Position numbers and translations under genes: made by a program. The notes under the pieces are model-generated. The model searched no databases, was not told the DNA's origin, and saw only the letters and a program-made list of their open reading frames with translations. Below are positions 1 through 27,839 of a DNA stretch of 64,000 bases, one piece after another. Position 1 is the stretch's first letter; every line of letters begins with the position of its first letter. Origin of the DNA: Burkholderiales bacterium (lineage in GTDB: Bacteria > Pseudomonadota > Gammaproteobacteria > Burkholderiales > SG8-41); the NCBI GenBank assembly GCA_035649495.1, contig DASRJL010000092.1, positions 3,588 to 67,587 on the forward strand. Direction: 5' to 3'.

Positions 1-118
1 GCCCTGTTCGACGGGCCGCGATCGCGCGTTTCTTCTCTGCGGTCAACGCCGGGTAACGCAGCGGGATGGCGTAACCTCCTGCAAGGCTGCCTCGGGGGGC
101 CGTGTTACAGGCAGCGCT

Positions 119-3100
119 TCAGGTTTCGCTTTCCTCCTCGCAATAGTCGATGTCTCCATCGGCATACGTAAAGAGCCAGTTCCTGATCGCGGCCAGCTTC
201 GCGTCATGCGGCCCGCGACTGGTAACAATGCGGGCGCCCGGCTCGCTGGACAGAAAGCCGTGCCGACGCAACTGCCTGATGTGCTCGGTCCGGGTCGACG
301 CGACAGAGCACGCGACGGAAACGGCCCCGCGCGCCCCGAAATCCCGCAGGGCCGCACTGACGAGAGCGTCGAAGGCCCGGGTATCCTCGCGGCTCACGAG
401 ATAGTCGACTATCCTGCCCCGAATCCCGCCTTTCCAGCGGGATTCGCGGGTCACCAGGTAGCCGACGACCTTGCCGTCCCGATCGGCGACGTATCGCGTA
501 TAGCCCCGGTTGGGGCAGCGATCAAAGCGCCAACTCAGAAACGCCTGATCGCGCACCATGATGCCTCGGTAGTCACGGGACGCCGTGCGCCACAACTCAT
601 CGAATCTGCCGTCGAAGTGGGGGATCTGCGAAACGGTGACGCTCCTGTCGGCGCGCAATCGAGCGCCGAAATCGAATGCCCTCGGAACGGGCCAGTAGAG
701 CAGACCGGAAACCCAGCAGAGCAGGGCATTCGCTCCCCGCGCCCTCAGCACTCCGCCCAGGTTGAGGCACGTCTTCAGGTCTTGCAATTGGTCGAGGTCA
801 ATCACCGATTCCATTGCCGACGCAATCGAATACATGGCTTCATTCGGCATCCCGAGCTTGATCCCGGGTGTATTTTCGTCGACCTGGTGAAGAAACCACC
901 CGGTGACCGTTCTGTGGTCGGGTGCGACGTGCGTATCGGTGCTCCACACGCCGGGCGTCGTTTCACCCTCGATCTTGAATCGTACGGGCAGAGCCCCGTT
1001 CCAGCCCACGATCTCGCCGCTGGATTCGAGAATGTCGACCAATGGGCCCTGGTCCGGACGATCCAGGTACTTCCACTCGAAAACCGCATCCAGAAGGCTT
1101 GCCGTCGTTGGTCCGAAGCACTTGGCGTACGAAGGCAATACGCCTCTCCTGTCGCCGTCCCGGTACCGTCGATACGTGTAAAGCGGGCCGTTCTTGGTCC
1201 GGTAGTGAGCCTCCTCGGTAGCTGCCAGGTCGCCAGGTGTCGACGAATCCGGCGCCCTTGAGGCCGATCCCGCACCTTGAGGCGGCTCCGCGCTGGCGAA
1301 ACTGCCGGGCGCCGCGCCAAACTCGCGGCCGACCGCCGCCGCCAATGCAGAGACGGTCGGGTTGTCGTAGATCAGCCGGGGGGTGAACTGGGTGTTTCTC
1401 AACCGGCGGCGCAGCCGGTTGATCAGGTCGACGGCCATCAGGGAATCGAGGCCGACCTCGAACAGGGAAGTCTCGTCCTCCAATGACTGCGGGTGCACGC
1501 CCAGGACCTGAGATATTTCCGTCCTGATCGTCGTAGCGAGCAATTGTATGCGCTCGACCTCAGGCGCGCTCGACAGACGTTCGAGTTCCGCGGCAAGCGA
1601 GGCATTCCGCCGGGACGCGCTGTCGTCTCCCGCAGTTTCAGTAGTCTGCCCCAGGCGCCCCAGCCAGGGGCAGGGACGCTGGGCCTCGGCGTGGACACGG
1701 AAAGTCGCCCAGTTCACGTCCGCCACTGCGGCGTGCGCGACGCGCTCCACCATCAGCGATTCCATCGCGTCGAGCGCCAGCGACGGGCCCAACAGGGACA
1801 GGCCGCGCCGGCGCAGCCAGGCGACGCCCTGCTCGGTCGAACTCGCCATCAATCCGAGTCCGGCCCAGGGGCCGTAGCTGATCGTCGTGACAGCTTCGCC
1901 CAGCGCCTTGCGCGACTCGGCGAGGCTTTCGAGGAAGGCGTTTGCAGCCGAGTAGGCAGCTTGGCTGACTGCCCCCCACGCGGAGGCGATCGAGGCCGTG
2001 CACACGAAGAACGACAGTTTGATGCCGCGTTCCCGGGTGATACGGTCGAGCAGCCAGCCGCCGATCACCTTGGGCCCCAGCGTTCGCTCCAGCTCTTCAG
2101 CATCGATGTTTTCGAGCGGAACGAGGCTTGCCACGCCCGCAGCGTGGATAATGCCTTTCAGCACAGGCAAGCCAGAGGCCTCGATCTCGCCGAACAGGCG
2201 CGAGACATCAGCCTCCCTGGACATGTCGGCGCGGATCACTCGAATCGTGCAATCATGGTTGTTCACGAGGTCCGCGATCGTTTCCTGCGCAGAATCCGAG
2301 GCCATGCGGCGGCTGGCCAGCACCAGGTTGCGGGCTCCCCGCGCGACGAGCCTGCGCGCCATTTGCAGACCCAGGTCGCCGAGGCCGCCGGTAATCAGAT
2401 AGGTACCATCCGCAGCCACCTCCAGGGGCTGGGCCGCGCCGGGCGGCTGCCTCCGTGTCACGCGCGCAACCCAGCGACGACCGTCGCGCAGGGCAATCTG
2501 GTCCTCGTCGTCCCCGGACTGGAGTGCTTGAGCCAGGCCGGAGGACACCGCTGCGGCATCGCCGTCGAGCGGCAGATCGATGAGCCCGCCCCACAGTTCC
2601 GGCTGCTCCATGGCGATAGCCCTGCCCAAACCCCACATCGGCCCCTGCGCCGGCTCGATCCGGTCCGACCCTGTGACCTGATGTACGCCGCGGGTTACCA
2701 CCCAGAGCTTCCCTCGCCAGCTAGACCCGATCAAAGCCTGTGCCAGTCGCAGCGTGCTCTCGATACCCAGCTTCTGCGCGAATCGCAATTCGTCGGTGCT
2801 TTCGACTCGTGTTCCATCGAGACTTCGCAAATGCACCACGTGCCCGAAGGGAGCCGATTCGTCAGCATTCGCTTCATCGAACAACCTGGCAAGGGTCTGC
2901 GGCGACCATGGAACCGGTTCATCGGCCGGCGCGCAAACGCACCGCTGACCGAGCCCCTCGAGCTGTCGGCAGAGCTCATGGGCGATGCCTTCGCGATCGC
3001 CCAGGACCAGCCAGGTTGCACGCCGCTGCTCGCGCGCGGCCGGCGGCAGAGCCTTTTGCTCCCAGACACTGTGGTACAAGCAGCTTTGCGGATTCGGCGC

Positions 3101-6100
3101 GGCGTCGACCCTGGGCTCGGGAGCGTCGATCCAGTAGCGCTGGCGCTGGAACGGATAGAAGGGCAGGGATACTCTACGGCGGGTGTCCCGCCACGGTGCG
3201 TCGACGGCCGCGAAGTCGACGTCCCCACCGCCGGCGTATATACGCGCTACCGCCGTCATGATCTGCTCCGCGTCGCTGCGGTTCCGGCGCAGGGTCTCAA
3301 CCCATACCGGTTCGCGGTCCGAGTCCCAGCAGCGCCGTCCCATGCCGAGAAGCACCGGCTGTGGCCCGAGCTCGATCACGAGATCGCAGGCCAGCTGCTG
3401 GAGCGCGCGGATGCTGCGCTCGAACTGGACCGGTTTCCTGATGTGCTCGGTCCAGTACGTCGCATCCAGGACCGTATCGTCGGAGACGACGTCCCCGCTC
3501 ACGTTGCTGATAAGGCGCTTCCGCGGGAGCTGGCAGGATATCCGGGATGCGAGAGCTTTGAACGGGTCGAGGATCGGGTCCATCCAGGCGCTATGAAACG
3601 CGCCCGAAGTCGCCAGCCGCCTGCAGCGCTGGCCGTCGGCCTCGAAGCGCTGCAGCAGTTCGTCCACCGCCTCCGAGGCACCGCTGATGACGGTCTCCGC
3701 GCCGTTATAAGCAGCTACACACACATCGGTTCCTGCGCGAAATGCGGCCGTGACCGTCTCAGCATCAACGGAGATCGCCCCCATTGCGCCGCCCGAGGGC
3801 AGCCCCTGCATCAATCGGCCGCGCTCCACCATCAGGGTCATGCCCTCTTCGAGGGTGAATACGCCGGCGGTGCATGCAGCTGCATACTCGCCTACGCTGT
3901 GACCGAGGACGATGTCCGGCTCTACGCCCCAACTGCGCAGCAGCGCAGCGAGGGAGGTCTCCAGTGCATAGAGCGCCGGCTGTGTGTATCGGGTTTCGTC
4001 GAGGCGGCCACTGCCATCATCTTCGAAAACAATCTCGTGCAATCCGGGCGCCCCGCCCTGCAGTCGGCTGAACTCCGCGGCGCAGCGGTCGAAATGATCG
4101 CGGAACACCGGCTCCGTCGAGTACAGGTCGCGTCCCATGCCCGCGAACTGCGAGCCCTGGCCCGTGAACAGGAATGCGATATGGCGCGTAGTTCGCAACG
4201 CGAGGCGGCCTTGATGAACGCCCGGATCGGTGAGTCCCTGCTGCAGACTGGTCAGCTGCGCCGTCAGCCGTTCGCGATCACCGAACACCAACGCCGCGCG
4301 CTGCTCGAAGTGATCGCGTCCGGTGTTGGCGGCATGGCACAAATCGGGCAACGGCACTTCGCTGTCCCGCACCAGTGCCTCCAGGTAGCGCCCAGCGAGT
4401 TCTCCCAGCGCGCCGTTCGTACGCGCCGACAGGGCGAGCACGCACGCACCCCGCTCGGGAATGCTTGCGCCGGTGCGAGCGGAAACGCGCCGGACCGGCG
4501 CCTCTTCGATCACCACGTGCGCATTTGTGCCCACGAATCCGAAAGAGCTCACGTCGGCGATGCGCCGCCGCTCTCCCGGGGGCCAGGGGACGGGTTCCGT
4601 CACGATGCGCAGGTTGAGCTGTTCCCAGGGAATGTGCGGGTTTGGCGTCCGGTAATGCAGGCTCTTGGGTATTCGCTCGTGGCGGAGCGCCAGGATGACC
4701 TTGATGACCCCGGCAATGCCGGCCGCGGTCTCCGTATGTCCGATGTTCGACTTCGCCGAGCCGACCAGAAGCGGATTGGACGGATCGCGTCCCCGCGACA
4801 GCACCGCATCCGCGGCCTGCACTTCTATCGGGTCGCCCAGCGGTGTGCCGGTTCCGTGCGCCTCGAGGTATTGAACGTCGGCCGGCGCGACACCCGCGTT
4901 CGCGAGCGCATCGGCAATCACCCGCTCCTGCGCTACACCATTCGGTACGGTCAAGCCGCTGCTGCGCCCGTCCTGGTTCACCGCGGAACCACGAATCAGC
5001 GCCAGAATCGGGTCGCCATCGCGCTCGGCATCGCGCAGCCGCTTCAAGGCGACCACGCCGCATCCTTCGCTGCGCACGTAGCCGTTGGCCGACGTATCGA
5101 ACGTCTTGCAGCGTCCGTCGGGGCTCAGCATGTGCGCACGGGAAAGAATCATGGATACCGCGGGGTTGAGCACTAAGCTGACGCCGCCAGCCAGCGCGAT
5201 ATCGCATTCGCCTGCGCGCAGGCTCGCGCACGCTTCATGCAGCGATACCAGCGAGGAACTGCATGCGGTATCGATGGCAAGAGCCGGCCCCTCCCAGCCG
5301 AGGGTGAATGCCAGCCGTCCGGCGGCCGCGCAGAGCGCGTTGCCCGTGCCGACGTAAGCGTCGAGCTGCCCGATGTCCTGGCGCGATACCCTCTCCGCGT
5401 AGTCCGATACGGAGATACCGATGAATACGCCACCGCGAACGCCTCGCAAGCGGCGTGGCGCCAAGCCGGCATTTTCCAGCGCCTCCCAGGCGACTTCGAG
5501 CAGTATTCGCTGCTGCGGGTCGAGGCTCAGTGCTTCCCGCGGCGAGATACCGAAGAAACCCGCGTCGAACATTTCGACGTCGGACAGAAATCCTCCCCAG
5601 CGGGTGTTCATCTTGCCGGGCATGTCCGGGTCGGCGTCGTAATGTGTTGCGGCGTCCCAGCGACTGGCCGGGATCTCGGTGATCTCGTCGCGTCCTTCGT
5701 CGAAAATGCGCCAGAAAGCCTCGGGATCGTTGGCGCCGGGATAGCGGCAGCTCAGGCCGATCACGGCTACCGGCTCGACGGTCCTCGATCGCAGCCGATC
5801 CACCTCGGACTGCAATGAGAGGATCGCAGCCAGCGCCTTGCGGTTGAACCTGTTCTCCTCGGATTCGTCGAGATCTGCGGACCAGCGCTGAGGATCCAGG
5901 ACCTCGCTGACGGCGCTGTCGATCGCCTGCGTCAGGCCGGTTGCGTCGCAGCTGAGCGCCTTGGCCTGAGCCTCGCTTGAATCGAGTATCCGGACCGGCA
6001 CCGGCGCGCGTTCCTCACCAGGGGACAGAGACGTCAAAAGGTAAGCGGCGATTCTGCGAACGGTTGGATGGTTGAAGATAATCGCAGCCTGCAGCTCGAC

Positions 6101-9100
6101 CGTATCGCCGATGTCGGCTTGCAGCGTGCTCCTCAATTCGACGGCCATGATCGAGTTCATGCCCAGGTCGAAGAAGCCGGCTTCCGGATCGACGCTTTCG
6201 GGCGTCAGCCCCAGCACGGCGCCGACTCGCCCTCGCATGTGCGTCTCGAGCGCTTCCCGGCGCTCGGCGGGACCCAGCGCGGCCAAGCGGCGAACGAGCT
6301 CACCGGGGCCGCGTTTCGCGCCGCGCCGGGCGGAATCCCCCGCGATGTCGCCCTCCACCCCGGCGAGGAGGAACAACTCCTCCAGGAACCTGAGCAGAAT
6401 CGGGGGTAGCCGCCCGGCGCGCGCCAGAGTGGCCCACCGCGCAACATTCATGGGCTGAACGCAGACTTGAGCAGCGCCGGAGCCGGCCAGGAGGTCGAAC
6501 GCTCGCAGCGCGAGCTTCGGGCGGATCAGGTGCGTTCCCATCTCCTCCCACCGCTCGGCTTCCATGCGGGTCGCCATGCCGTCCTCGGCCCAGGGGCCCC
6601 AGTTGATGGCAACTGCAGGGAGTCCCTTGCCGCGGCGGTAATGGGCGAGGCTGTCCAGGTACGCGTTGGCGGCGCTGTAATTGCCATGCCCGCGCAGTCC
6701 CAGCAGTGATGCGGCCGAGCTGAACAGCACGAAAAAATCGAGCTCGAGCTTATGCCTGCATGCCAGGTGGTGCAGGTTCCAGGCGCCCCAGACCTTCGGC
6801 GCCATCACGCTCGCAAGCAGATCCCGCGTCTGGCTCGCGATCGGGGCGCCTTCCAGGACGCCTGCGGCGTGGATAATCCCGCGCAGTGGAAGGGCGCCGG
6901 GCGCACCCCGAATCTGCTCCATCAACCGCTCGGCTTCCGCGTGCACCGATACGTCGGCGGTATAGACGTCGACCCGGCATCCGGAATCTGCCAGTGCCTT
7001 TATTACTGCGCCCGCGGCCTCGTTACCTCCTGATCTGCTCGTCAGGACGATCTGCCTGGCGCCGTGCCCGGCCAGGTGCCGTGCCAGCATCAGGCCCAGC
7101 GCGCCGGTGCCACCGGTTATCAGGTAGGCGGCGTCCGCCCTGACGCGCAACGGCGATTCATCGCGCACGGGCTCACGTCGGAAGCGCGCAGTCCAGGACT
7201 TGCCATCGCGCACGGCCACCTGATCGCCGCCGTCGTCGCGCAGCAGTGCGCCAGCGAGATCGGCTGCTGTCGCGGTGCTGTCCCGCCCGAGGGCGAGATC
7301 GATCAATCCGCCGTAGCGGTCCGGGTGCTCGACTGCGAACGTTCGACCGAAGCCCCACACGGGAGCATGGGTGGGCTCGACTTGCTCGTCGTCCAGCACC
7401 GCATGAACGCCGCGGGTCACGAGCCAGAGCCGCGTTGCCTCCCGTGTGGAAATCAGGGCTTGCGCGACGAGCAGGGCACTCATCACTCCCGAGGATTGTG
7501 CCTCTCGAACAGCGTCGCCGCCCCCGTCTGAATCGACGAATGACCCTGCGACATGCACGACGTGATCGACCGGTGCCTGCCGTCGTGCAGTCTCCAGCAT
7601 TGCGCGTATGGCAGCCGGCGAGGTCGCGTTGCCGTCGATGCGCTCGCTTCTCACGGACTCCTGTCCGCGAGCGCGCAGCGCCATTTCGAGCGCAGCGCCG
7701 AGATCCGCTTCGCCAGCCAGTATCAGCCAGCGCTGCTGCCGGGCGGCTGACGATGGCGGCAAGCCATCACTTGCCTTCCACCGGACCTGGTAGACGGAGT
7801 CTCCCAGCGCAGCGGCGATATCGCCGCCCATCGGGCCGGCCCAGTAGCGCTCGTGCTGGAAAGGGTAGGACGGGAGCGCAAACGTCCGGCGCGCGCGGGC
7901 GCCGGGCGCCATGACGGCAAAGTCGAGCGTGATTCCCCGTGCATGGATCTGTGCCGCGGCGGTCAATACCTGTTCGTAAGCGTTGCGGCCTTTTGCGAGT
8001 GAGCTCGCCCAGAGCACGGGATGCTCCGGGCGCCAGCTCATCTGCGCCAGCCAGACGAGCTCCGCCTGCGGCCCGAGCTCGAGCGCGATGTCGCATCCAA
8101 CCTCTTCGAACAGCGCCTGGATCCCCTGCGCAAACCGCACGGGTTGCCGAGCCTGGTTGCGCCAGTACACGGCGTCCGGCGTCTCGTCATTTGCGAGAGG
8201 CTTGCCGGTCAGGGTGCTGATCAGCCTGGTGTGGGGCGCGCTGTATTCTGTGCGACGCGCACACGCCTCGTAGTCGTCCAGGATGGGTTCGATGCTGGGA
8301 CTGTGGAAGGCATTGGACGCCGGCAGCTTGGCGTAGTAGAGCTCTTTCGAGTCGAATTGCTCCGCGAGGACGTCCAGGCGGCCAATCGGACCGCTGACTA
8401 CCGTGTTCAATCCGTTGTAGGCCGACACGTGCACGGTGTCGTCGCCGGCTATGGCCGCCTCGACCGTCTCGATGGGTGCGGTGACCGAGAGCATCGTTCC
8501 CTCCGGGAGCGTTTGCATCAGACGCGCCCGGTCGACGATCAGTCTCAGGCCGTCCTCGATACGAAATACTCCCGCAACACACGCGGCGGCGTACTCGCCT
8601 GCGCTATGGCCGAGAACGGCATCCGGCTTGACGCCCCAACTCTGCCAGAGCGCCGCCAACGACACCTGCAGCGCATAAAGGGCGGGTTGCACGTAGCGGG
8701 TCTGCTTGAGAAGCTGCGCGCTGTCCTGGTCGAACATCAGGCTCTTGAGCGGCGGCGAACCGTCCTCGCGGCCGAAGTCGTCGTACGCCGCGGCACAGCG
8801 GTCAAGACACTCGCGAAACGCCGGCGCACGCTCGTAGAGCTCTTGCGCCATACCTGTGTATTGCAGTCCCTGTCCTGGAAAGAGAAATGCGACCCGCGGG
8901 CGGCGCTCGCGCAGGGTTGTGCCCGCAATCAAGCCCGGCGCCGGCTTGCCTTGTGCCAGGGCGCCGAGCTTTTGCTGAGCCGCCTCGCGGCTGCCGCAAA
9001 TCAGCACTGCGCGCTGCTCGAAATGGTTGCGCCCCGTATTGGCGGCATGACAGATGTCGGAGATCGCCGCATCGTCCCGCGCGCGCAGCCACGCCGCGTA

Positions 9101-12100
9101 CCGCACGGCCAACTCCTTCACGCCGGACTGCGTTCGGGCGGACAGGGCCAGCAGCCACGGGCCGGACGCATCCACGATCGGCTCACCGGCATCGTTGGCT
9201 TCCTGCCGTGGCGCCTCCTCGAGCACGACGTGAGCATTGGTGCCCGCGAATCCGAAGGAGCTCACCCCGGCGATTCGAGTGCGCGAATCAGCGCGCGCCC
9301 ACGGCAGCGTCTCCGCTGCGACCTTGACGGGCATGGACGCCCAGGGAATGTGGGGGTTGGGTACTTTGAAATGCAAGCTCCGCGGGATCGCGCCGTGCTG
9401 CAGTGCCAGAACCACCTTGATGAGTCCTGCGATCCCGGCGGCGGCCTCCAGGTGACCCATGTTGGACTTGACCGATCCGATGATGAGGGCATCGGCGGGC
9501 TCGCGTCCCCGCGCGAGGACCGCGTTGGCGGCTTGAACCTCGATCGGATCGCCGAGCACGGTTGCGGTGCCATGACATTCGAGGTAATGCACGCTCGCCG
9601 GCTCGATGCCTGCAACGCTCAAGGCGTCGGCGATGACGCGCGTCTGCGAGGGACCGCTCGGGGCGGTGAGTCCGCTGCTGCGTCCGTCCTGGTTGACCGC
9701 GCTGCCCCGGATCACCGCCAGGATGCGGTCCCCATCGCGGCGCGCATCGCTCAGGCGTTTGAGGACGACTATCCCGCAGCCTTCGCTGCGCACATAACCA
9801 TCAGCCGACGCATCGAACGTCCTGCACCGGCCGTCGGGGCTGAGCAGTCGCGCCTTGCAGAACGCCACGGTAAGCTCCGGGCGCAGGATCGCGTTGACCC
9901 CGCCGGCCAACGCAATCTCGCACTCTCCCTGGCGCAGGCTTTGCACGGCCTGATGCACGGCCACCAGCGACGAGCTGCACGCCGTGTCCACGGCAACGCA
10001 GGGTCCCTGCAGGCCGAGCGCGAAGGATAGCCGCCCGACGGCTGCGCTGTGGGCGTTGCCCGTGGCCATGAACGCGTCGGTCGTTTCGGGGCCCCGGCCG
10101 GTCAGGATCCGCTCGTAGTCGCCGGTGGAAAGGCCCATGAAGACCCCGGCGGGTCTGCCGTCGAGCCGGCCGGGTGGGATACCCGCGTGCTCCAGCGCGA
10201 GCCATGCGACCTCAAGCAGGTGCCGATGCTGCGGGTCCATGCTGGTTGCTTCCCGCGGCGAGATATCGAAAAACGCCGCATCGAAGCCTTCGATGTCGTC
10301 GATGAAACCGCCGAACCGGGTGTTCATCTTGCCCACGGCACCAGCGTCCGGATCGAAGTAGGCTTCGATATTCCAGCGCTCCGGGGGCACCTCCCGGATC
10401 GCGTCGCGTCCCTCTTCCAGCAGCCGCCAGAATTCATCGGCATCGGCGGCGCCGGGAAAGCGGCAGGCCAAGCCGACGACAGCTACCGGTTCATCCGGCA
10501 GCCGATCCGCTCGCGCTGGCACGGGCGATCGCGCCGGTTCTCCGAACAGAACGTCCTCCAGGTAACGGGCAAGCGCTTCGATATTGGGCTGGTCGAACAG
10601 GAGCGTCGCGGGCAGGCTGACGTTGTTTCCGATCGCGTCCTGCAAGCGGTTGACGAGGGCGACGGCTCCAACCGAGTCGAGTCCCAATCGCTCGAAGCCG
10701 GTGCGCGGATCGGGCAACGCAGCGAGTTCCAGCGCGCGGGCGATTTCTCCCTGCACATGGGCGACGAGCACGCGGTGGCGGTCCGCCCGGGGCAGGGCAC
10801 GCAGCAGTTCGATCAGGCCTGCGACTGCCGCCGGGGCCGGACTGTCGCGCTCCTCGCTCGACTTCGCACGCCATTCCGAGAGCAACGCCAGACCGCCGGA
10901 CAGGTGCTCCAGGCGGCACGCATAGCGCATGATCTTGCCGCTCGAGGTTTTCGGAAGCCGGCCTGGCTGCACGAGCCCGAGCCAATGTACGGCAACGCCG
11001 AACTGCTCTCCAATCGCGGCGCGAACAGCCTCGAACACCTCATCCGAACTGATCCGCTGACGGCCCGAGCGCTTCACCTCCAACGCGATGCCCAGTTCCT
11101 CGCGGTCCTCGACCTCCAGGGGAAAAGCGGCACAGGCGTCGATCTGCAGTGCCTCATGGCTATGCTGCGCGGCCAGCTCGATATCCTGCGGATACAGATT
11201 GCGGCCGCGAATGATGATCATGTCCTTGAGTCGGCCGGTGACGTACAACTCACCATTGAGCAGGAACCCCAGATCGCCGGTTCGCAGGTAGGACTGTTCC
11301 CCTTCTCCGGCAATGTGCGCGTTGAAGGTTGCTTCGGTTTCATCCGGCCGTTTCCAGTAACCGCGGGCAACGCTGGGGCCTGAAACCCAGATCTCGCCGA
11401 CCCTGCTCTCGGGAAGACGCTGCAGGGTTTCGGGATCCGCGATGGCGACTTCCATGCTGCCGCCCATGATTCCGGAACTAACCAGGCGGATCGCCAGCGG
11501 CTCCTCGGGCGCGCAGGTTTCGGCTGCACCATGGTCGAGCCTGTCACGCCGGAAGCAGGTTACTACGGGGTCTTGGTCCAACCGGCCTGCAGTCGTGCAA
11601 AGCGTCGTTTCCGCCATGCCATAACATGGCAGGTGCGTGCGGCGGCGGAAACCATAAGGCTCGAAGGTCTCGCTGAAGCGGTCGAGCGTGTCCGCTCGAA
11701 CGGGTTCAGCGCCATTGATGGTCATCTCCCACGAACTGAGATCGAGCCCTTCGCGCTGACTGGGCGTGGTCCCTCTTACGCACAGGTCATACGCGAAATT
11801 GGGCGCGCTCGACCCGGTACCCCGGTAGTTGCTGATAGCCCTCAACCATCGGATCGGGCTTTGCAGGAACGCTGCCGGCGACATGACGACCGTCAACGCG
11901 CCGCAGAACGTAGGCCCCACGAGGCCCGCGATCAGGCCCATGTCGTGGAAAAATGGCTGCCAGCTGACCTCGGTCGAATGCACGTTGCACCGGGAGACCT
12001 CGCGCGCGTACTCGCACTGATGCAACAGATTGCCGTGGGTGATCATTACGCCCTTGGGGCTGCCGGTAGACCCCGAGGTATATTGAAGGTGTGCCACGGA

Positions 12101-12601
12101 CTCCGGTTCGATATACGTTGCCCGCCAGTCCTCTGACCGGTCGGCAAGTGCGTCGGTCGCCAGGACTTGCAGACCGCGGTCTCCGAGGCCGCGCGAGAGC
12201 TGTTCGGAGTCGGCAAGCACGCAAAGCGCGGCTCCCGGCGCGCAATCTTCCAGCATGGTCAACAGCCGGGGATCGGTGCGCCGGGGATGAGGCGGATAGG
12301 CCGGGACGGCAATCGCGCCCGCGTACAGGCAGCCAAGAAACCCGACGATGAAATCCAGTCCCGCGCGATAGGTCAGTATTACCGGTTTGCCGGCGAGTTC
12401 GCGCTCTTGCAGCCAGGCGGCCACCGAGCGGGCCTGGCGATCCAGTTCTCCGTAGGTGAGACGTGCGGATTCACGCTCGCCGTCCGCCAGGAAAATGAAT
12501 GCCGTGCGTTCGCTCTGGTGCTCGCCTCTCCAGTGCAGTACCGAATTGAAGGTACCCCACTCCCCAAGCTCCCGGCCCTCGAACTGGTCCATGTCGCGCA
12601 A
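119..12601 (-). CDS. Giant FAAL-initiated type I polyketide synthase (4160 aa): FAAL-ACP-KS-AT-KR-ACP-KS-AT-KR-ACP-tandem GNAT/FemAB-like C-terminal domain; no DH, ER or TE domain
   Basis: Single uninterrupted ORF. FAAL signatures are LTYGELD, GLDFIVGFLGCLYAGAIAVPAYPP, YTSGSTGSPKGV and PKTSSGKI. There are two KS (DTACSSSL, HGT, KSNxGH), two AT (GHSAGE, GHSVGE), two KR (YLITGGxGxLG, YSAAN) and three carrier domains (LGLDSV, LGMNSI, VGLDSL). No HxxxGxxxxP dehydratase motif was seen. Confidence 0.95.
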   Translation of the reverse strand: MRDMDQFEGRELGEWGTFNSVLHWRGEHQSERTAFIFLADGERESARLTYGELDRQARSVAAWLQERELAGKPVILTYRAGLDFIVGFLGCLYAGAIAVPAYPPHPRRTDPRLLTMLEDCAPGAALCVLADSEQLSRGLGDRGLQVLATDALADRSEDWRATYIEPESVAHLQYTSGSTGSPKGVMITHGNLLHQCEYAREVSRCNVHSTEVSWQPFFHDMGLIAGLVGPTFCGALTVVMSPAAFLQSPIRWLRAISNYRGTGSSAPNFAYDLCVRGTTPSQREGLDLSSWEMTINGAEPVRADTLDRFSETFEPYGFRRRTHLPCYGMAETTLCTTAGRLDQDPVVTCFRRDRLDHGAAETCAPEEPLAIRLVSSGIMGGSMEVAIADPETLQRLPESRVGEIWVSGPSVARGYWKRPDETEATFNAHIAGEGEQSYLRTGDLGFLLNGELYVTGRLKDMIIIRGRNLYPQDIELAAQHSHEALQIDACAAFPLEVEDREELGIALEVKRSGRQRISSDEVFEAVRAAIGEQFGVAVHWLGLVQPGRLPKTSSGKIMRYACRLEHLSGGLALLSEWRAKSSEERDSPAPAAVAGLIELLRALPRADRHRVLVAHVQGEIARALELAALPDPRTGFERLGLDSVGAVALVNRLQDAIGNNVSLPATLLFDQPNIEALARYLEDVLFGEPARSPVPARADRLPDEPVAVVGLACRFPGAADADEFWRLLEEGRDAIREVPPERWNIEAYFDPDAGAVGKMNTRFGGFIDDIEGFDAAFFDISPREATSMDPQHRHLLEVAWLALEHAGIPPGRLDGRPAGVFMGLSTGDYERILTGRGPETTDAFMATGNAHSAAVGRLSFALGLQGPCVAVDTACSSSLVAVHQAVQSLRQGECEIALAGGVNAILRPELTVAFCKARLLSPDGRCRTFDASADGYVRSEGCGIVVLKRLSDARRDGDRILAVIRGSAVNQDGRSSGLTAPSGPSQTRVIADALSVAGIEPASVHYLECHGTATVLGDPIEVQAANAVLARGREPADALIIGSVKSNMGHLEAAAGIAGLIKVVLALQHGAIPRSLHFKVPNPHIPWASMPVKVAAETLPWARADSRTRIAGVSSFGFAGTNAHVVLEEAPRQEANDAGEPIVDASGPWLLALSARTQSGVKELAVRYAAWLRARDDAAISDICHAANTGRNHFEQRAVLICGSREAAQQKLGALAQGKPAPGLIAGTTLRERRPRVAFLFPGQGLQYTGMAQELYERAPAFRECLDRCAAAYDDFGREDGSPPLKSLMFDQDSAQLLKQTRYVQPALYALQVSLAALWQSWGVKPDAVLGHSAGEYAAACVAGVFRIEDGLRLIVDRARLMQTLPEGTMLSVTAPIETVEAAIAGDDTVHVSAYNGLNTVVSGPIGRLDVLAEQFDSKELYYAKLPASNAFHSPSIEPILDDYEACARRTEYSAPHTRLISTLTGKPLANDETPDAVYWRNQARQPVRFAQGIQALFEEVGCDIALELGPQAELVWLAQMSWRPEHPVLWASSLAKGRNAYEQVLTAAAQIHARGITLDFAVMAPGARARRTFALPSYPFQHERYWAGPMGGDIAAALGDSVYQVRWKASDGLPPSSAARQQRWLILAGEADLGAALEMALRARGQESVRSERIDGNATSPAAIRAMLETARRQAPVDHVVHVAGSFVDSDGGGDAVREAQSSGVMSALLVAQALISTREATRLWLVTRGVHAVLDDEQVEPTHAPVWGFGRTFAVEHPDRYGGLIDLALGRDSTATAADLAGALLRDDGGDQVAVRDGKSWTARFRREPVRDESPLRVRADAAYLITGGTGALGLMLARHLAGHGARQIVLTSRSGGNEAAGAVIKALADSGCRVDVYTADVSVHAEAERLMEQIRGAPGALPLRGIIHAAGVLEGAPIASQTRDLLASVMAPKVWGAWNLHHLACRHKLELDFFVLFSSAASLLGLRGHGNYSAANAYLDSLAHYRRGKGLPAVAINWGPWAEDGMATRMEAERWEEMGTHLIRPKLALRAFDLLAGSGAAQVCVQPMNVARWATLARAGRLPPILLRFLEELFLLAGVEGDIAGDSARRGAKRGPGELVRRLAALGPAERREALETHMRGRVGAVLGLTPESVDPEAGFFDLGMNSIMAVELRSTLQADIGDTVELQAAIIFNHPTVRRIAAYLLTSLSPGEERAPVPVRILDSSEAQAKALSCDATGLTQAIDSAVSEVLDPQRWSADLDESEENRFNRKALAAILSLQSEVDRLRSRTVEPVAVIGLSCRYPGANDPEAFWRIFDEGRDEITEIPASRWDAATHYDADPDMPGKMNTRWGGFLSDVEMFDAGFFGISPREALSLDPQQRILLEVAWEALENAGLAPRRLRGVRGGVFIGISVSDYAERVSRQDIGQLDAYVGTGNALCAAAGRLAFTLGWEGPALAIDTACSSSLVSLHEACASLRAGECDIALAGGVSLVLNPAVSMILSRAHMLSPDGRCKTFDTSANGYVRSEGCGVVALKRLRDAERDGDPILALIRGSAVNQDGRSSGLTVPNGVAQERVIADALANAGVAPADVQYLEAHGTGTPLGDPIEVQAADAVLSRGRDPSNPLLVGSAKSNIGHTETAAGIAGVIKVILALRHERIPKSLHYRTPNPHIPWEQLNLRIVTEPVPWPPGERRRIADVSSFGFVGTNAHVVIEEAPVRRVSARTGASIPERGACVLALSARTNGALGELAGRYLEALVRDSEVPLPDLCHAANTGRDHFEQRAALVFGDRERLTAQLTSLQQGLTDPGVHQGRLALRTTRHIAFLFTGQGSQFAGMGRDLYSTEPVFRDHFDRCAAEFSRLQGGAPGLHEIVFEDDGSGRLDETRYTQPALYALETSLAALLRSWGVEPDIVLGHSVGEYAAACTAGVFTLEEGMTLMVERGRLMQGLPSGGAMGAISVDAETVTAAFRAGTDVCVAAYNGAETVISGASEAVDELLQRFEADGQRCRRLATSGAFHSAWMDPILDPFKALASRISCQLPRKRLISNVSGDVVSDDTVLDATYWTEHIRKPVQFERSIRALQQLACDLVIELGPQPVLLGMGRRCWDSDREPVWVETLRRNRSDAEQIMTAVARIYAGGGDVDFAAVDAPWRDTRRRVSLPFYPFQRQRYWIDAPEPRVDAAPNPQSCLYHSVWEQKALPPAAREQRRATWLVLGDREGIAHELCRQLEGLGQRCVCAPADEPVPWSPQTLARLFDEANADESAPFGHVVHLRSLDGTRVESTDELRFAQKLGIESTLRLAQALIGSSWRGKLWVVTRGVHQVTGSDRIEPAQGPMWGLGRAIAMEQPELWGGLIDLPLDGDAAAVSSGLAQALQSGDDEDQIALRDGRRWVARVTRRQPPGAAQPLEVAADGTYLITGGLGDLGLQMARRLVARGARNLVLASRRMASDSAQETIADLVNNHDCTIRVIRADMSREADVSRLFGEIEASGLPVLKGIIHAAGVASLVPLENIDAEELERTLGPKVIGGWLLDRITRERGIKLSFFVCTASIASAWGAVSQAAYSAANAFLESLAESRKALGEAVTTISYGPWAGLGLMASSTEQGVAWLRRRGLSLLGPSLALDAMESLMVERVAHAAVADVNWATFRVHAEAQRPCPWLGRLGQTTETAGDDSASRRNASLAAELERLSSAPEVERIQLLATTIRTEISQVLGVHPQSLEDETSLFEVGLDSLMAVDLINRLRRRLRNTQFTPRLIYDNPTVSALAAAVGREFGAAPGSFASAEPPQGAGSASRAPDSSTPGDLAATEEAHYRTKNGPLYTYRRYRDGDRRGVLPSYAKCFGPTTASLLDAVFEWKYLDRPDQGPLVDILESSGEIVGWNGALPVRFKIEGETTPGVWSTDTHVAPDHRTVTGWFLHQVDENTPGIKLGMPNEAMYSIASAMESVIDLDQLQDLKTCLNLGGVLRARGANALLCWVSGLLYWPVPRAFDFGARLRADRSVTVSQIPHFDGRFDELWRTASRDYRGIMVRDQAFLSWRFDRCPNRGYTRYVADRDGKVVGYLVTRESRWKGGIRGRIVDYLVSREDTRAFDALVSAALRDFGARGAVSVACSVASTRTEHIRQLRRHGFLSSEPGARIVTSRGPHDAKLAAIRNWLFTYADGDIDYCEEESET
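122..1207 (-). other. PKS C-terminal ~360-aa tandem GNAT / FemAB-like acyltransferase-type domain occupying the position of a release (TE) domain
   Basis: Starts after a Pro/Ser/Ala-rich linker at HYRTKNGPLYTYRRYRDGD. The first half reads ILESSGEIVGWNGALPVRF...THVAPDHR. The second half reads MVRDQAFLSWRFDRCPNRGYTRYVADRDGKVVGYLVTRE...IVDYLVSREDTRAFDALVSAALRDFGARGAVSV...QLRRHGF, the pattern of GNAT-fold acyltransferases common in EPS loci. No GxSxG/His thioesterase signature. Assigned from motifs and memory only. Confidence 0.55.
1307..1549 (-). other. PKS domain: terminal ACP (Ser3720, codon 1442-1444)
   Basis: LFEVGLDSLMAVDLINRLRRRL. Confidence 0.85.
1847..2401 (-). other. PKS domain: KR2 catalytic subdomain (predicted A-type)
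   Basis: YLITGGLGDLGLQMARRL and YSAANAFLE. HAAGVASL replaces LDD. Trp is present in PKVIGGWLL. Confidence 0.8.
3257..4168 (-). other. PKS domain: AT2 (Ser2902, codon 3896-3898; specificity motif G-A-F-H at nt 3593-3604)
   Basis: FLFTGQGSQF, GHSVGEYAAACTAG, and GAFH in place of the canonical HAFH/YASH. Confidence 0.85.
4497..5776 (-). other. PKS domain: KS2 (active-site Cys2447, codon 5261-5263)
   Basis: EPVAVIGLSCRYPGA, DTACSSSLVSLH, EAHGTGTPLGDPIE, GSAKSNIGHTETAAG, FGFVGTNAHVVIEEAP. Confidence 0.9.
6017..6259 (-). other. PKS domain: ACP of module 1 (Ser2150, codon 6152-6154)
   Basis: FFDLGMNSIMAVELRSTL. Confidence 0.85.
6572..7126 (-). other. PKS domain: KR1 catalytic subdomain (predicted A-type)
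   Basis: YLITGGTGALGLMLARHL Rossmann motif and catalytic YSAANAYLD. HAAGVLEG occupies the LDD position. Trp is present in PKVWGAWNL. The roughly 280 aa upstream resemble only the KR structural subdomain. Confidence 0.8.
7967..8875 (-). other. PKS domain: AT1 (Ser1333, codon 8603-8605; specificity motif N-A-F-H at nt 8303-8314)
   Basis: FLFPGQGLQY, GHSAGEYAAACVAG, and NAFH where malonyl-specific ATs canonically carry HAFH. Confidence 0.85.
9212..10495 (-). other. PKS domain: KS1 (active-site Cys875, codon 9977-9979)
   Basis: EPVAVVGLACRFPGA start, DTACSSSLVAVH, ECHGTATVLGDPIE, GSVKSNMGHLEAAAG, ends FGFAGTNAHVVLEEAP. Confidence 0.9.
10532..10774 (-). other. PKS domain: loading ACP (Ser643, codon 10673-10675)
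   Basis: Motif FERLGLDSVGAVALVNRL located by reverse-complementing the DNA. Boundaries approximate. Confidence 0.85.
10832..12601 (-). other. PKS domain: fatty acyl-AMP ligase (FAAL) loading domain, approx aa 1-590
   Basis: Adenylation core motifs plus the FAAL-typical N-terminal block AGLDFIVGFLGCLYAGAIAVPAYPP. Followed directly by a carrier domain rather than a CoA-ligase terminus. Boundaries approximate. Confidence 0.85.
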
Positions 12602-13074
12602 GTATATAGATATACGGAACTTTGTAGAGCGCCATCGTCGGATCTGGCGTGCGACGAGCTGTGACTATTGTCACACCGCGCGACTCGCCGGTCAGATATG
12701 GAGACAGCAAAGCCTGTGCCAGCTCTGCAAGTCTTCGAGAATGGAGGTCGCGCCCCATGTTGGCGCGGACGCGTGCCCTCAAATCGCGCCGAAATTCCAC
12801 CGCTCGGACAAATTCGGGGTTGGATCCATCCCGACAAGTGCTGTACACAGCTGTGCGACAAAACTGCGCAATTGACCGGTAGCCGGACCGGCGATATAGT
12901 TTTTCCCAGCGGGATAGCGGCGTTTTGATTTCTGCTTTGTGACTACGATCTGCCTTGATTTGAACAATTTCTACCGGTTGTCGCATGGTATGTGACCGGG
13001 CACTACGGATCCCTGTTCATGAATGCGGTTGAAAGCGGGGGTATTTGCAGTCCTATTGCCGGAGACAATCGATC

Positions 13075-13902
13075 ATGCCATCCCTGAACTACATCCAGAA
13101 ATTCAAAATCCTTCACATCGCCAATCACATTGTCGGCCTTGCAGCTGTGTACATGGCCTTTTCCGCAGGAGCCTATTGGTGGTTCGCACTGGGCTTCGTC
13201 TGTTTCCTGTGGACCGGTATCGTGGGAGTCAACGTTTCCCTGCATAGATACTACGCACACAGGGCATTTACCACGACTCCATTCAGAGAAAAGATCCTGT
13301 TGATTTCCAGCGTGGTTACCAGCCTCGGCAGTCCGGCCATGTGGTGCTCGATACACAGACTGCATCATTCGACCAGCGACACCGGCACGGATCCGCACAA
13401 TCCGAAAAATGGAGCCCTGAAGTGCTGGTTTACCATCTGGCCTGCCATTTGCATGCCAAAAAGATTTGTAGCGCCTTTTCTCGGTACCCGTGCATTAAGG
13501 TTTGTTCACGAGAATTATTTCCTGATGAATTTCACGATTCTGACAGTGCTATGTCTGATAGACATCAAGCTGGCAGGGTTCTTGTACGCCTTGCCGGCAA
13601 TCGGTTGCTTTCATGGTGCCGGTGCCATCGGCGTATTGCCGCACGTAACCGGACGAGCACAGATAGGCTATCGCAGATACGATGTCAGCGACCTGAGCCA
13701 CAACAACGTGCTGGCTGCGATTCTGAGCCTGGGAGAAGGTTGGCATAACAATCATCACGCAAACCCGGGTCGTTGGTGGCAAGGCGAAACATGGTGGGAA
13801 GTGGATCCGCCGGCATTCATGATCAAGCACTTTTTCATGACCGACGCAAATAGAGAAAGGCGAGCCGCCCCGGCCGTGTCTCACGGCATGTCGAACAAAT
13901 GA
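13075..13902 (+). CDS. Membrane fatty-acid desaturase, Delta9 (stearoyl-CoA desaturase-like) family
   Basis: Three His boxes in SCD-type context: SLHRYYAHRAF, CSIHRLHHSTSDTGTDPHNP and LGEGWHNNHHANP. Hydrophobic N-terminus. GGAGA lies 9 nt before ATG 13075 (the ORF track starts at TTG 13045). GC is visibly lower than in neighbouring genes. Confidence 0.85.
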   Translation: MPSLNYIQKFKILHIANHIVGLAAVYMAFSAGAYWWFALGFVCFLWTGIVGVNVSLHRYYAHRAFTTTPFREKILLISSVVTSLGSPAMWCSIHRLHHSTSDTGTDPHNPKNGALKCWFTIWPAICMPKRFVAPFLGTRALRFVHENYFLMNFTILTVLCLIDIKLAGFLYALPAIGCFHGAGAIGVLPHVTGRAQIGYRRYDVSDLSHNNVLAAILSLGEGWHNNHHANPGRWWQGETWWEVDPPAFMIKHFFMTDANRERRAAPAVSHGMSNK

Positions 13903-14492
13903 GGAGTCGGAAGATGTCAATGACTTCCGGACACCTCGGTCAGAAATCTGCAGGCAATTTCGCGTCTTCGTCAAGTCATGGCTCAAGGGTTTTCGGTAAG
14001 TTGATTTCGGTGACCGTCGGCAGCGCCGGGGCTCCCGGCGCTTGCAGCGCGCCGGGTTCGCTGGGTGGAGCGCCCGCAGCACCTGCGTGAGTTGCGCCTA
14101 CAGCGCGGCGCCGTTCCCGAAGTGCACACGTAGGTGGAAGTACTGCCGGCGGATCACGGCTCTTCAATCGATCCGGTCTCATTTCCGCGACCGCGGGTCG
14201 TACAACCTCCGCGACACCGACCGCCGCCTCGTCGGACGAGATCTTCCTTACTTTGACACTGTTCGCCTGCCTTTCGGGCGTACTTACGACGGCAGGTGTG
14301 TAAAGTTACATTGACACGAACGGGTTCTCGTGGAGACACTCGGGTAGCGGGCGGATAACATCGTCTTTCTTCCGAAACCTAACTACCGTATCGTTAGCTC
14401 CTTTCGCATTCGAGATGTCCGAACGGGCTGACCACGAAAGCCGCCGGATACCGCGGTGAATCGGTGAGGAATCGGAGATAGAGCAAGGGCAT

Positions 14493-15350
14493 ATGGAAAT
14501 AACAACAGTTGCAGTGGTCGGTGCGGGCACCATCGGCCGTGGTCTCGCCCTTGACCTGGCCATGCGCGAGTATCAAGTCATTCTGAACGATGTCGCCGAG
14601 GACCTGCTCGAACAAGCGAGAGCAGCGATGCGCTCCGACTTGAAGTCCTATCGCATGCTGGTGCCGGAGTACCGGGAAGTCGATGACGAGGCGCTGCTCG
14701 GTCGGATACGCTTCGCGGCCGACCTGGCGGCGGTGGCGGGCGCAGGTTTCGTCATCGAGAACATCATCGAGCAGTACGACGAGAAGGCGCGCCTGTATGC
14801 GCGGCTCTCGGCGATTTGCGGAAAGGAAACCGTTTACGGGGTGAACACGTCCTGCATTTCGATCACGAAGCTAGCCCAGCACGTGCCCGATCCGTCGAGG
14901 ATGATCGGCATGCACTTCATGAATCCGGTGCCGATGAAGAAATTCGTCGAGATGATCCGGGGCGAGCGCACGTCCGAGCAGACCGTCGAGACCGCGACCG
15001 CGCTGGTGACGCGGCTCGGAAAGGATCACGTGCTCGTCAAGGACTTTCCCGGTTTCGTGGCGAACCGCGTGATGATGCTGGCGGTCAACGAATGCGCGTT
15101 CATCGTTCAGGACGCCGTGGCAACACCAGCGGATGTGGACAAGGTTTTCAGGCTGGCGTTCGGCCACGGCATGGGGCCGCTGGCGACGGCCGATCTGATC
15201 GGCCTCGACACCGTACTGAATTCCATTCTGGTCCTTTTCGACGAATACAAGGACTCGAAATATCGTCCGTGTCCGCTCCTGCAGAAGATGGTAGATGCCG
15301 GGAAGCTGGGCAGGAAGAGCGGGCAGGGGTTCTTCAAATATTCCAGGTAG
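14493..15350 (+). CDS. 3-hydroxyacyl-CoA dehydrogenase family protein (FkbK/ZmaG-like step of hydroxymalonyl-ACP synthesis)
   Basis: N-terminal Rossmann VAVVGAGTIGRGLA and the HFMNPVP motif typical of 3-HADH. Positioned directly upstream of the FkbH-like gene. Confidence 0.8.
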   Translation: MEITTVAVVGAGTIGRGLALDLAMREYQVILNDVAEDLLEQARAAMRSDLKSYRMLVPEYREVDDEALLGRIRFAADLAAVAGAGFVIENIIEQYDEKARLYARLSAICGKETVYGVNTSCISITKLAQHVPDPSRMIGMHFMNPVPMKKFVEMIRGERTSEQTVETATALVTRLGKDHVLVKDFPGFVANRVMMLAVNECAFIVQDAVATPADVDKVFRLAFGHGMGPLATADLIGLDTVLNSILVLFDEYKDSKYRPCPLLQKMVDAGKLGRKSGQGFFKYSR

Positions 15351-15373
15351 CTGCGACGCGGCGGAGGGCGGGC

Positions 15374-16423: not shown

Positions 16424-16671
16424 GAGAAAAGATCCGCGCGATGGTCGAGAGCAATCTCAACATCTTCCAATCCGACATTGTGTTCAGCGACGACGACAAT
16501 ATTTTCCGCAAGGGCTTCGTCGACTCGCTGTTCGCCGTCCAACTGATCGCTTATCTCGAGCAGGAATTCGGTATCAAGGTCGGCAACAAGGACCTCGACA
16601 TCAACAATTTCCACTCCGTGAGCAAGATGGTGAGCTTCGTCGAGCGCAAGAGCCAGGAGCGGGCCGGTTGA
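16420..16671 (+). CDS. Discrete acyl carrier protein (FkbJ/ZmaD-like)
   Basis: 83 aa with GFVDSLFAVQLIAYLEQEFG (DSL phosphopantetheine site). GTG start overlaps the FkbH stop (GTGA at 16420-16423), suggesting translational coupling. Confidence 0.75.
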   Translation: MREKIRAMVESNLNIFQSDIVFSDDDNIFRKGFVDSLFAVQLIAYLEQEFGIKVGNKDLDINNFHSVSKMVSFVERKSQERAG

Positions 16672-16681
16672 CGGTGGTCCG

Positions 16682-17827: not shown

Positions 17828-17858
17828 GGCGTGCGTGCCGTCGCTCCGGCTCACGCGC

Positions 17859-22737: not shown

Positions 22738-22837
22738 TGTGTCTGCGGCGAATCCTAGAAACAATCAGTCGAAGAGCTGAGAAAACTGATATCGGCAGGG
22801 CGCGGACAGGCGGATTGAATCCAGGGAGCGCTTGATT

Positions 22838-27838: not shown

Positions 27839-27839
27839 G

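Follow-up and report, generated by a model that had tools for sequence, protein, structure and literature searches.

The 64,000-nt stretch of Burkholderiales bacterium DNA analysed here (contig DASRJL010000092.1, positions 3,588 to 67,587; hereafter, the window) encodes a polyketide synthase (PKS) megasynthase with an unusual C-terminal tail. This tail of ∼355 aa, running to the stop codon, consists of two GNAT-like halves, with N-myristoyltransferase (NMT) as the closest solved structure. We propose that it is probably a carrier-protein-dependent acyltransferase off-loading the chain in cis; we infer both the catalysis and a donor bound to the acyl carrier protein (ACP). The position of the tail and its genomic context are best explained by a release step in which the acyl chain is handed to an amine or a sugar. 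Chain release decides the final product of an assembly line, and the known release toolkit comprises thioesterases (TE), reductases (R), and terminal condensation (C) domains, along with a handful of transferases whose folds differ from GNAT.

Domain organization of the megasynthase

The megasynthase open reading frame (ORF) is read here from a TTG codon (Table 1); its only ATG start, at 12592, yields 4157 aa, in agreement with the ENA calls of the locus. Pfam identified in the protein one AMP-binding domain of the fatty acyl-AMP ligase (FAAL) type, three PP-binding domains, and two copies each of the ketosynthase (KS), acyltransferase (AT), and ketoreductase (KR) domains. The AT motifs are NAFH and GAFH, and judging from these, both AT domains look malonyl-like. 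In a protein search with the FAAL N-terminus as the query, the nearest FAALs came from Burkholderiales metagenome-assembled genomes (MAGs), with 73% and 63% identity; this search gave only proteins of ∼1,000 aa or less and no full-length PKS. The continuous ORF recurs in a JGI metagenome contig, L009, with 99.7% identity over 8340 nt, and in three ENA contigs or assemblies, the ENA copies differing by a few residues. As the same uninterrupted ORF is present in all of these, the fusion of the PKS and the tail as an assembly artefact was ruled out.

The phosphopantetheine serine of the last ACP is Ser3720 in GLDSL (nt 1442-1444), exactly where an earlier reading of the window from the letters alone (the sequence-only reading) had placed it. 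After aa 3757, a motif scan of the tail found no GxSxG, HHxxxDG, GxGxxG, or GxxGxxG, and Pfam gave no Thioesterase, NAD-binding, or Condensation match. Hence both approaches agree with the claim of that reading that no thioesterase, reductase, or condensation signature follows the last ACP. It had delimited the tail at 122-1207 (aa 3800-4160), and all the peptides it quoted from there are present (aa 3862-3875, 4021-4050, 4064-4073, 4084-4096, and 4112-4116).

Fold and family of the tail

Each half of the tail has a GNAT match in Pfam. Tail aa 43-130 (the tail numbering plus 3790 gives the PKS numbering) match Acetyltransf_9 with E=3.8e-4 and 20.9 bits, under the cut-off of 25 bits, and tail aa 258-305 match Acetyltransf_1 with E=1.6e-5 and 25.6-25.9 bits, over the cut-off of 20.7 bits. 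The AlphaFold2 model, based on an alignment of 11 sequences, has a mean predicted local distance difference test score (pLDDT) of 78 and a predicted template-modelling score (pTM) of 0.80, and shows the beta-alpha-alpha-beta3-alpha-beta-alpha-beta unit twice in one chain; the C-half is confident (pLDDT 85-95), the N-half moderately so (52-75). When this model was compared with the PDB by Foldseek, N-myristoyltransferases came on top (2nmt, 1nmt, 6pau; E∼3e-12, TM-score 0.5-0.59), and the Eis-like double GNATs 2hv2 and 2ozg matched as well (E∼5e-12), both groups with probability 1.00; the top 50 matches comprise NMT and Eis-like proteins and no Fem enzymes. NMT is also the best solved relative by sequence, as the profile of 60 family members matched 1iyk with E=2e-4, aligned over the N-half; the identity between the tail and NMT is ∼12%, and a phmmer search of the PDB with the tail alone gave chance-level matches only. 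Across the 60 members, Pfam found Acetyltransf_9 in 51, Acetyltransf_1 in 48, and Acetyltransf_7 in 28, and its NMT models matched two (E∼2e-3) and not the tail itself. Taken together, the Pfam models, the predicted structure, and the Foldseek matches confirm the two GNAT-like halves seen by the sequence-only reading: the tail is a tandem GNAT at the position that a TE, R, or C domain would otherwise occupy.

That reading had also suggested kinship with the FemAB-like and N-acyl-amino-acid-synthase-like families, and here we disagree. The tail had no match at E≤1 to FemAB (PF02388), Acetyltransf_6 (PF13480), Acetyltransf_5 (PF13444), TIGR03019, or TIGR03694 in Pfam and NCBIfam, and none of the 60 family members matched FemAB, Acetyltransf_6, or Acetyltransf_5 in Pfam at E≤0.01. 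In NCBIfam, there was no model for the tail, and nine of ten stand-alone relatives had no match, the tenth having only a sub-threshold match to rimI. Since none of these models matches the tail or its relatives, it is neither a FemAB-like nor an N-acyl-amino-acid-synthase-like protein; membership in the latter or in the OlsB type is also at odds with two halves over ∼355 aa, as opposed to a single domain of ∼250 aa. A PKS loading GNAT of the CurA GNAT_L type was considered as well and set aside, the tail being double and C-terminal, downstream of the last ACP.

The C-half is the best-conserved part of the family; its conserved residues include W4024, R4025, P4030, Y4034, G4047, Y4048, G4062, D4066, L4080, G4115, W4142, and T4145. 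The tail ends with an acidic strand, which by analogy with NMT may be catalytic, because NMT uses its own C-terminal carboxylate as the catalytic base. Throughout the family, a conserved W-x-x-T-x-x-D-x-D motif is located within about 5-20 residues of the protein end (122-181 on the minus strand of the window).

Fused tails form a single clade

An exhaustive search with a hidden Markov model (HMM) of the tail family over 1.84 billion cluster representatives yielded 12,727 relatives at E≤1e-3 and 908 at E≤1e-30. This search was needed, as a word-indexed protein search of the tail had given 11 relatives and no long megasynthases. The best 150 relatives are nearly all stand-alone proteins of ∼350-370 aa, with source names no more specific than "GNAT acetyltransferase-like". 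The strongest matches are C-termini of megasynthases. Among these, the window PKS has colinear counterparts in P0016 (4085 aa), P0023 (4122 aa), and the Krumholzibacteriia locus L002, and the ORF of locus L013 also terminates in the tail domain. Others are hybrids with nonribosomal peptide synthetase (NRPS) modules, consisting of C, adenylation (A), and peptidyl carrier protein (PCP) domains. L001 from a Gammaproteobacteria MAG (3660 aa) has the order FAAL-ACP-KS-AT-KR-ACP-C-A-PCP-tail, P0014 has KS-AT-KR-ACP-C-A-PCP-tail, P0017 has two such PKS modules followed by C-A-PCP-tail, and the fragment P0019 is A-PCP-tail. The hand-read specificity residues of the adenylation domains in these four (in L001, at 6737-11119) are DILQLG(V/L)IW, which we take to be the glycine code; judging from these residues, the donor there would be an N-acyl-glycyl thioester. 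The survey proposed in the sequence-only reading thus revealed ACP- or PCP-GNAT termini in other FAAL-PKS and PKS-NRPS megasynthases.

The 13 megasynthase-borne tails (the window and 12 relatives) group as one clade, free of stand-alone members, in a neighbour-joining tree; their genomes of origin are Burkholderiales-like, Gammaproteobacteria, and Krumholzibacteriia. All 13 proteins end with the tail, none of them has a TE, R, or terminal C domain, and in each of the nine with upstream sequence examined, the tail directly follows the terminal ACP or NRPS PCP. The fused tails retain the residues conserved in ∼125 stand-alone relatives, which include, in tail numbering, R21, D27, W53, P59, G76, D99, P104, and R107 on the N-half side, and F206, W214, R227, W234, R235, P240, Y244, G257, Y258, G272, D276, L290, G325, W352, T355, D358, and D360 in the rest. 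The identity of the window tail to those of P0016 and L002 is 45%, compared with 46-48% for the catalytic PKS domains. A degenerate tail was therefore rejected, the family residues being kept and the conservation being on par with that of the catalytic PKS domains.

Loop of the putative donor site

GNATs hold the diphosphate of CoA via a Q/R-x-x-G-x-G/A loop between beta4 and alpha3 (PMC13060382). In the N-half, a loop of the R/Q-x-x-G type is found in 87 of 126 stand-alone members, typically as HP-x-x-RG-x-G. The P-loop glycines are absent from all 13 megasynthase tails, which have HR-x-[VA]-[ST] instead, conserved within the clade; the full Q/R-x-x-G-x-G/A loop occurs in neither half of any of them (0/13). 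The C-half has no such loop in the fused and stand-alone groups alike. NMT acylates an amine with a long fatty chain, binding the donor in its N-half and the acceptor in its C-half, and by this analogy we infer that the N-half is the donor-binding one. The fused clade, as its sequences suggest, would have remodelled the CoA-specific loop, as expected if the pantetheine arm is tethered to the adjacent carrier. Taken alone, the loop loss could mean loss of function. Still, a carrier-tethered donor fits better than a dead domain, because the lost loop is replaced by a conserved clade-specific sequence. The sequence-only reading had named the loss of CoA- or pantetheine-binding features in a degenerate tail as grounds for abandoning its proposal; the canonical P-loop is indeed absent, but the loop has been swapped for a conserved sequence and the tail has not decayed.

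Genomic context

Because the window starts 118 nt beyond the PKS stop codon, the downstream genes were taken from the near-identical contig L009, which represents the same locus except for an intergenic indel of ∼40 nt. There, the PKS is followed by genes for a radical SAM protein, a WcaJ-type transferase, a polysaccharide deacetylase, GT9, a methyltransferase, and GT4 (GT, glycosyltransferase). The second of these scored 464.6 bits as a WcaJ-type undecaprenyl-phosphate glucose phosphotransferase, against a cut-off of 410.75 bits. On the other side, the window encodes a Wzx-type flippase, a sulfotransferase, and CysDNC proteins of sulfate activation. As the sugar transferase, glycosyltransferases, deacetylase, Wzx, sulfotransferase, and CysDNC genes flank the PKS, it is embedded in a glycan-assembly and sulfation island. 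The PEP-CTERM gene that the sequence-only reading placed in the island is present. The exosortase association that this reading mentioned holds for relatives: the stand-alone member P0011 (locus L005) lies directly after exosortase EpsH, EpsI, and PrsT, and an ACP is encoded at a distance of 1.2 kb. In the 64-kb window, no homologue of an exosortase was detected by tblastn with a single set of EpsH, EpsI, and PrsT queries.

Every fused locus with flanking sequence carries one or more sulfotransferases, and Wzy_C and MurJ-type genes are found farther out in L002, L013, and L014. The stand-alone members lie in exopolysaccharide, capsule, and exosortase loci, adjoining dedicated ACPs; an ACP is found within 5 kb in three of four stand-alone loci. 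In L016, GT9, GT2, an ABC transporter, another GT2, and a capsule-synthesis protein are encoded on one side of the gene; on the other is a dedicated KR-KS-ACP-dehydratase-KS set, beyond which lie GT2, radical SAM, and PIG-L-family deacetylase genes. In L003 (Azospirillum), the stand-alone gene accompanies two GT4s, a polysaccharide deacetylase, an ACP, an AMP ligase with an exosortase-A-associated ligase as the best match, and a homologue of the XrtA-type amidotransferase. In L004, it lies between a sulfotransferase and GT4. Moreover, the 690-aa metagenome protein P0055 is a fusion of an N-terminal GT2 (chondroitin-synthase-like, E=8e-35) with a family member that keeps the canonical QRQG loop; this Rosetta-stone fusion ties the tail family to glycan synthesis.

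Proposed mechanism

In the proposed mechanism, the FAAL would load a fatty acid, and the two KS-AT-KR modules would lengthen it, leaving a 3,5-dihydroxyacyl thioester on Ser3720 of the last ACP, with extra hydroxyls possible if the cassette of HAD, ACP, and dehydrogenase genes (see below) supplies hydroxymalonyl units. The pantetheine arm would then enter the cleft of the N-terminal GNAT half via the flexible linker, and a nucleophile held by the conserved C-half would attack the thioester, freeing the holo-ACP. Tentatively, judging from the gene neighbourhoods of a few loci, the likeliest acceptor would be the free amine of a de-N-acetylated hexosamine in a saccharide linked to undecaprenyl diphosphate. 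This saccharide would be assembled by the flanking sugar transferase, GT9, and GT4, and the product would be sulfated by the sulfotransferase with CysDNC and flipped by Wzx. The discrete TE beside the phosphopantetheinyl transferase (PPTase) would then be an editing type II TE.

Several observations weigh against release by the tail. The pyrophosphate-binding loop is missing from the fused tails, and the donor site could thus be inactive. For the N-half, the Acetyltransf_9 match is below the cut-off and the structural model is only moderately confident. The chain could be released hydrolytically by the discrete PF00975 thioesterase in the window or, in L001, by the A-PCP-TE protein adjoining the PKS. 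The downstream glycan genes were read in L009 instead of the window. Three of the seven distinct locus types (annotated ORFs), and not all, have sugar N-deacetylases, which belong to two unrelated families. Finally, neither a C-terminal GNAT in a PKS or NRPS nor off-loading by a GNAT turned up in our literature search, and GNATs go unmentioned in a 2025 review on FAAL pathways.

Alternative explanations

One alternative is that the tail is a CoA-dependent tailoring acetyl- or acyltransferase fused by chance, which, for example, N-acetylates the acceptor glycan or the product, while the chain is released by the discrete TE, spontaneous hydrolysis, or lactonisation. Most GNATs use acetyl-CoA, the CoA-type P-loop is kept in most stand-alone relatives, and thioesterases are at hand, 6 kb away in the window and adjoining L001. 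However, the P-loop glycines are gone from every fused tail, and the tail always stands directly after the terminal carrier where upstream sequence exists, with no other release domain in the polypeptide. No thioesterase was found in 10 kb downstream of L002 and L013, nor in ∼4.4 kb downstream of L014. The thioesterase at 18634-19422, which the sequence-only reading named as the possible releasing enzyme, is real, but it lies beside the PPTase, as editing type II TEs usually do, and editing is probably its role. We therefore regard tailoring by a CoA-dependent enzyme as unlikely.

Release by the tail with no external acceptor, either by hydrolysis or by attack of the 5-hydroxyl to form a delta-lactone, seems more improbable still. 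A 3,5-dihydroxyacyl thioester is prone to lactonise, and the tail occupies the position of a TE. Yet in L001, P0014, P0017, and P0019, the tail follows a glycine-specific NRPS module, without such hydroxyl geometry; the stand-alone relatives in glycan loci and the glycosyltransferase fusion favour intermolecular transfer; and the strongly conserved C-half resembles an acceptor-binding half as in the NMT structures.

We give an equally small chance to the tail being a non-catalytic, GNAT-derived scaffold for docking, dimerisation, or recruitment of the membrane or a partner. The lack of a canonical P-loop would fit such a role, and inactive halves are common among tandem GNATs (PMC13060382). 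On the other hand, the family-invariant polar and aromatic residues (R, D, W, Y, D-x-D) are all kept in the fused clade, and the remodelled loop is conserved within it.

Lastly, the tail might be a Fem-type transferase that uses aminoacyl-tRNA to attach an amino acid to the glycan or lipid, with no part in release. FemX and FemA have the tandem GNAT fold too, and FemAB-like proteins are known in PEP-CTERM loci (TIGR03019). Even so, this is very improbable, as the tail and 60 relatives lack FemAB, Acetyltransf_6, and TIGR03019 matches, the top Foldseek matches are not Fem, and the carrier-protein fusion and adjoining dedicated ACPs point to thioester donors.

Comparison with known systems

Similar to NMT (glycylpeptide N-tetradecanoyltransferase), its best structural and profile match, the tail has two GNAT-like halves in one chain. 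Unlike the tail, NMT is eukaryotic and free-standing, uses myristoyl-CoA as the donor, and acylates the N-terminal glycine of proteins, whereas the tail comes from bacteria, follows a carrier protein in the same polypeptide, and does not have the CoA P-loop glycines. The Eis-like GNAT-GNAT(-SCP2) proteins (2hv2, 2ozg; Acetyltransf_9) match the tail in structure, and their Pfam model matches the N-half in 51 of 60 family members. Eis has a third, SCP2-like domain, which the tail lacks, and acetylates aminoglycosides or proteins with acetyl-CoA as the donor. With FemABX and the FemAB-like proteins of PEP-CTERM systems (TIGR03019, Acetyltransf_6), the tail family shares the tandem GNAT fold class and the occurrence in exopolysaccharide and exosortase loci (P0011), but not a match to the Fem sequence models. 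Fem enzymes use aminoacyl-tRNA.

Acyl-ACP is used by several enzymes with GNAT-type folds that form amides: N-acyl amino acid synthases of the FeeM type, acyl-homoserine lactone (AHL) synthases, OlsB, and RTX-toxin acyltransferases. Unlike the tail, these are single-domain and free-standing, and the tail family has no Acetyltransf_5 or TIGR03694 match. As for GNATs in PKSs, the view of the sequence-only reading that they otherwise serve as N-terminal loading or decarboxylase domains agrees with the literature: those of CurA, saxitoxin SxtA, and gephyronic acid are single N-terminal domains that decarboxylate malonyl-type units to yield starters (bioRxiv 10.1101/2025.03.07.642089). Like these, the tail would be a GNAT fold inside a modular PKS acting on carrier- or CoA-bound acyl groups, but it is double and stands at the very end, after the last ACP.

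The functional logic proposed for the locus is that of Nod factors and lipid A, in which a sugar N-deacetylase frees an amine and an acyl-ACP-dependent transferase N-acylates it; the Nod system adds a sulfotransferase and PAPS (3'-phosphoadenosine-5'-phosphosulfate) synthesis of the CysDN/C type. Putative counterparts of all these functions are encoded around the PKS. The parallel to NodB/NodA/NodH/NodPQ and LpxC/LpxD would be a functional analogy, not homology: unlike the tail, NodA and LpxD have other folds and use free-standing ACP donors.

Off-loading by acyltransferases is known elsewhere, from the carnitine-acyltransferase domain of a fungal PKS, LovD, and the mycobacterial PapA5/PapA1-2 with Pks2/FadD23/Stf0; in the sulfolipid-1 system, a FAAL and a PKS likewise occur together with acyltransferases and a sulfotransferase. 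As proposed for the tail, the chain is passed there to an external alcohol or amine and is not released by a TE. Unlike the tail, these off-loaders have carnitine acyltransferase, alpha/beta hydrolase, or condensation-like folds, and none is a GNAT. Because release by acyl transfer is known with other folds and no C-terminal GNAT terminator was found described, what would be new here is the GNAT fold in the role of an off-loading transferase, together with a family that has not been characterised.

Other features of the locus

The coordinates of the features are collected in Table 1. The genes at 14493-17827 resemble, in their content, the FkbK/FkbH/FkbJ/FkbI cassette for hydroxymalonyl- or methoxymalonyl-ACP extender units, except for the O-methyltransferase; the HAD-family gene of this set (15374-16423) could not be confirmed as FkbH. 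A VanZ gene is also found in the window, on the Wzx/CysNC side of the PKS.

Table 1. Features of the PKS locus in the window and sulfotransferase genes of related loci.
Feature	Position	Strand	Remarks
Megasynthase ORF	119-12601	-	4160 aa from TTG; FAAL-ACP-KS-AT-KR-ACP-KS-AT-KR-ACP-tandem GNAT
FAAL loading domain, aa 24-570	10892-12532	-	Pfam AMP-binding and AMP-dom_DIP2-like; closest proteins named fatty acyl-AMP ligase or AMP-binding protein
Terminal ACP, aa 3691-3757	1331-1531	-	Pfam PP-binding
ACP-to-GNAT linker, aa 3758-3796	1214-1330	-	Ala/Pro/Ser/Gly-rich composition; low pLDDT at the model start
N-terminal GNAT half, aa 3797-3955	737-1213	-	Acetyltransf_9 and NMT N-half matches; putative acyl-donor (pantetheine) site
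beta4-alpha3 loop of the N-half, aa 3894-3902	896-922	-	PDHRTVTGW; GNAT P-loop position
Helical connector between the GNAT halves, aa 3956-3985	647-736	-	Secondary structure of the AlphaFold model
C-terminal GNAT half, aa 3986-4146	164-646	-	Best-conserved part of the family; no P-loop; putative acceptor side
Acidic C-terminal end, aa 4147-4160	122-163	-	Conserved D4148-x-D4150 of the W-x-x-T-x-x-D-x-D motif
Fatty acid desaturase-family protein	13045-13902	+	Divergent from the PKS
3-Hydroxyacyl-CoA dehydrogenase	14493-15350	+	Part of the 14493-17827 set
HAD-family protein	15374-16423	+	Sole PDB matches are the uncharacterised 3slr and MDP-1
Discrete ACP, 87 aa	16408-16671	+	Most similar to ACPs adjoining the stand-alone GNATs of L003 and L005
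Acyl-CoA dehydrogenase	16682-17827	+	Part of the 14493-17827 set
Sfp-type phosphopantetheinyl transferase	17799-18530	+	
Discrete thioesterase (PF00975)	18634-19422	+	∼6 kb from the PKS
Wzx-type polysaccharide flippase	19515-20951	+	
Sulfotransferase (Sulfotransfer_4)	21005-21955	-	
PEP-CTERM protein	22832-23608	+	
CysN/CysC fusion and CysD	24081-26947	-	Sulfate activation to PAPS
Sulfotransferase of L001 (one)	L001 11143-12024		Directly after the PKS
Sulfotransferases of L002 (two found)	L002 11098-13909		Directly after the PKS
Sulfotransferases of L013 (three)	L013 11155-13973		Directly after the PKS
Sulfotransferases of L014 (three)	L014 1687-4491		Directly after the PKS

Just past the PKS stop codon, the intergenic indel of ∼40 nt separates the window (17-60) from L009 (8382-8384), and the ENA contig L007 ends near the same site; as the two coincide, this suggests a spot that is variable or hard to assemble. 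At the other end of the PKS, the region 12601-14493, which comprises the intergenic region between the divergent PKS and desaturase genes and the desaturase gene itself, has a G+C content of 0.56, compared with ∼0.65 in the flanks. A radical SAM gene lies near the tandem GNAT both in L009 (8410-9975, minus strand) and in the unrelated stand-alone locus L016 (18516-19571, plus strand), and GT9 is found in both. A second PEP-CTERM protein is encoded at 45834-46547 (plus strand).

Between the sulfate-activation genes and a DUF72 gene, the window carries an ORF of 1103 aa (27089-31151, minus strand) with a weak Pfam match to a beta-propeller (lactonase) and no PDB sequence match, and an adjoining ORF of 249 aa with no Pfam match. 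The rest of the window (33861-39060, plus strand; 39941-44862, minus strand; 47906-50206, plus strand) is housekeeping-like, encoding cytochrome c proteins, cytochrome oxidase, class II aldolase, a TctC (Bug) receptor, AsmA, OmpA, and a molybdopterin oxidoreductase. Together with the Burkholderiales FAAL fragment of 73% identity, the TctC receptor suggests that the DNA is of betaproteobacterial origin.

Implications

If the tail indeed off-loads the chain, a terminator of the GNAT fold would add to the release toolkit a logic in which the chain is joined directly to an external acceptor through an amide or ester bond, and this could be put to use for attaching polyketide or lipopeptide chains to amines or sugars. 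It is conceivable, though rather speculative, that NMT-like tandem GNATs constitute a new class of PKS and NRPS termination, coupling the chain in cis to a de-N-acetylated lipid-linked sugar and yielding sulfated lipoglycans across several phyla, and that their thousands of stand-alone relatives are ACP-dependent glycan N-acyltransferases of exopolysaccharide and exosortase loci. The release function would also offer a first clue to what the members of this very large, uncharacterised family do, and would point to unrecognised sulfated, PKS-derived lipoglycans in environmental Proteobacteria and Krumholzibacteriota.

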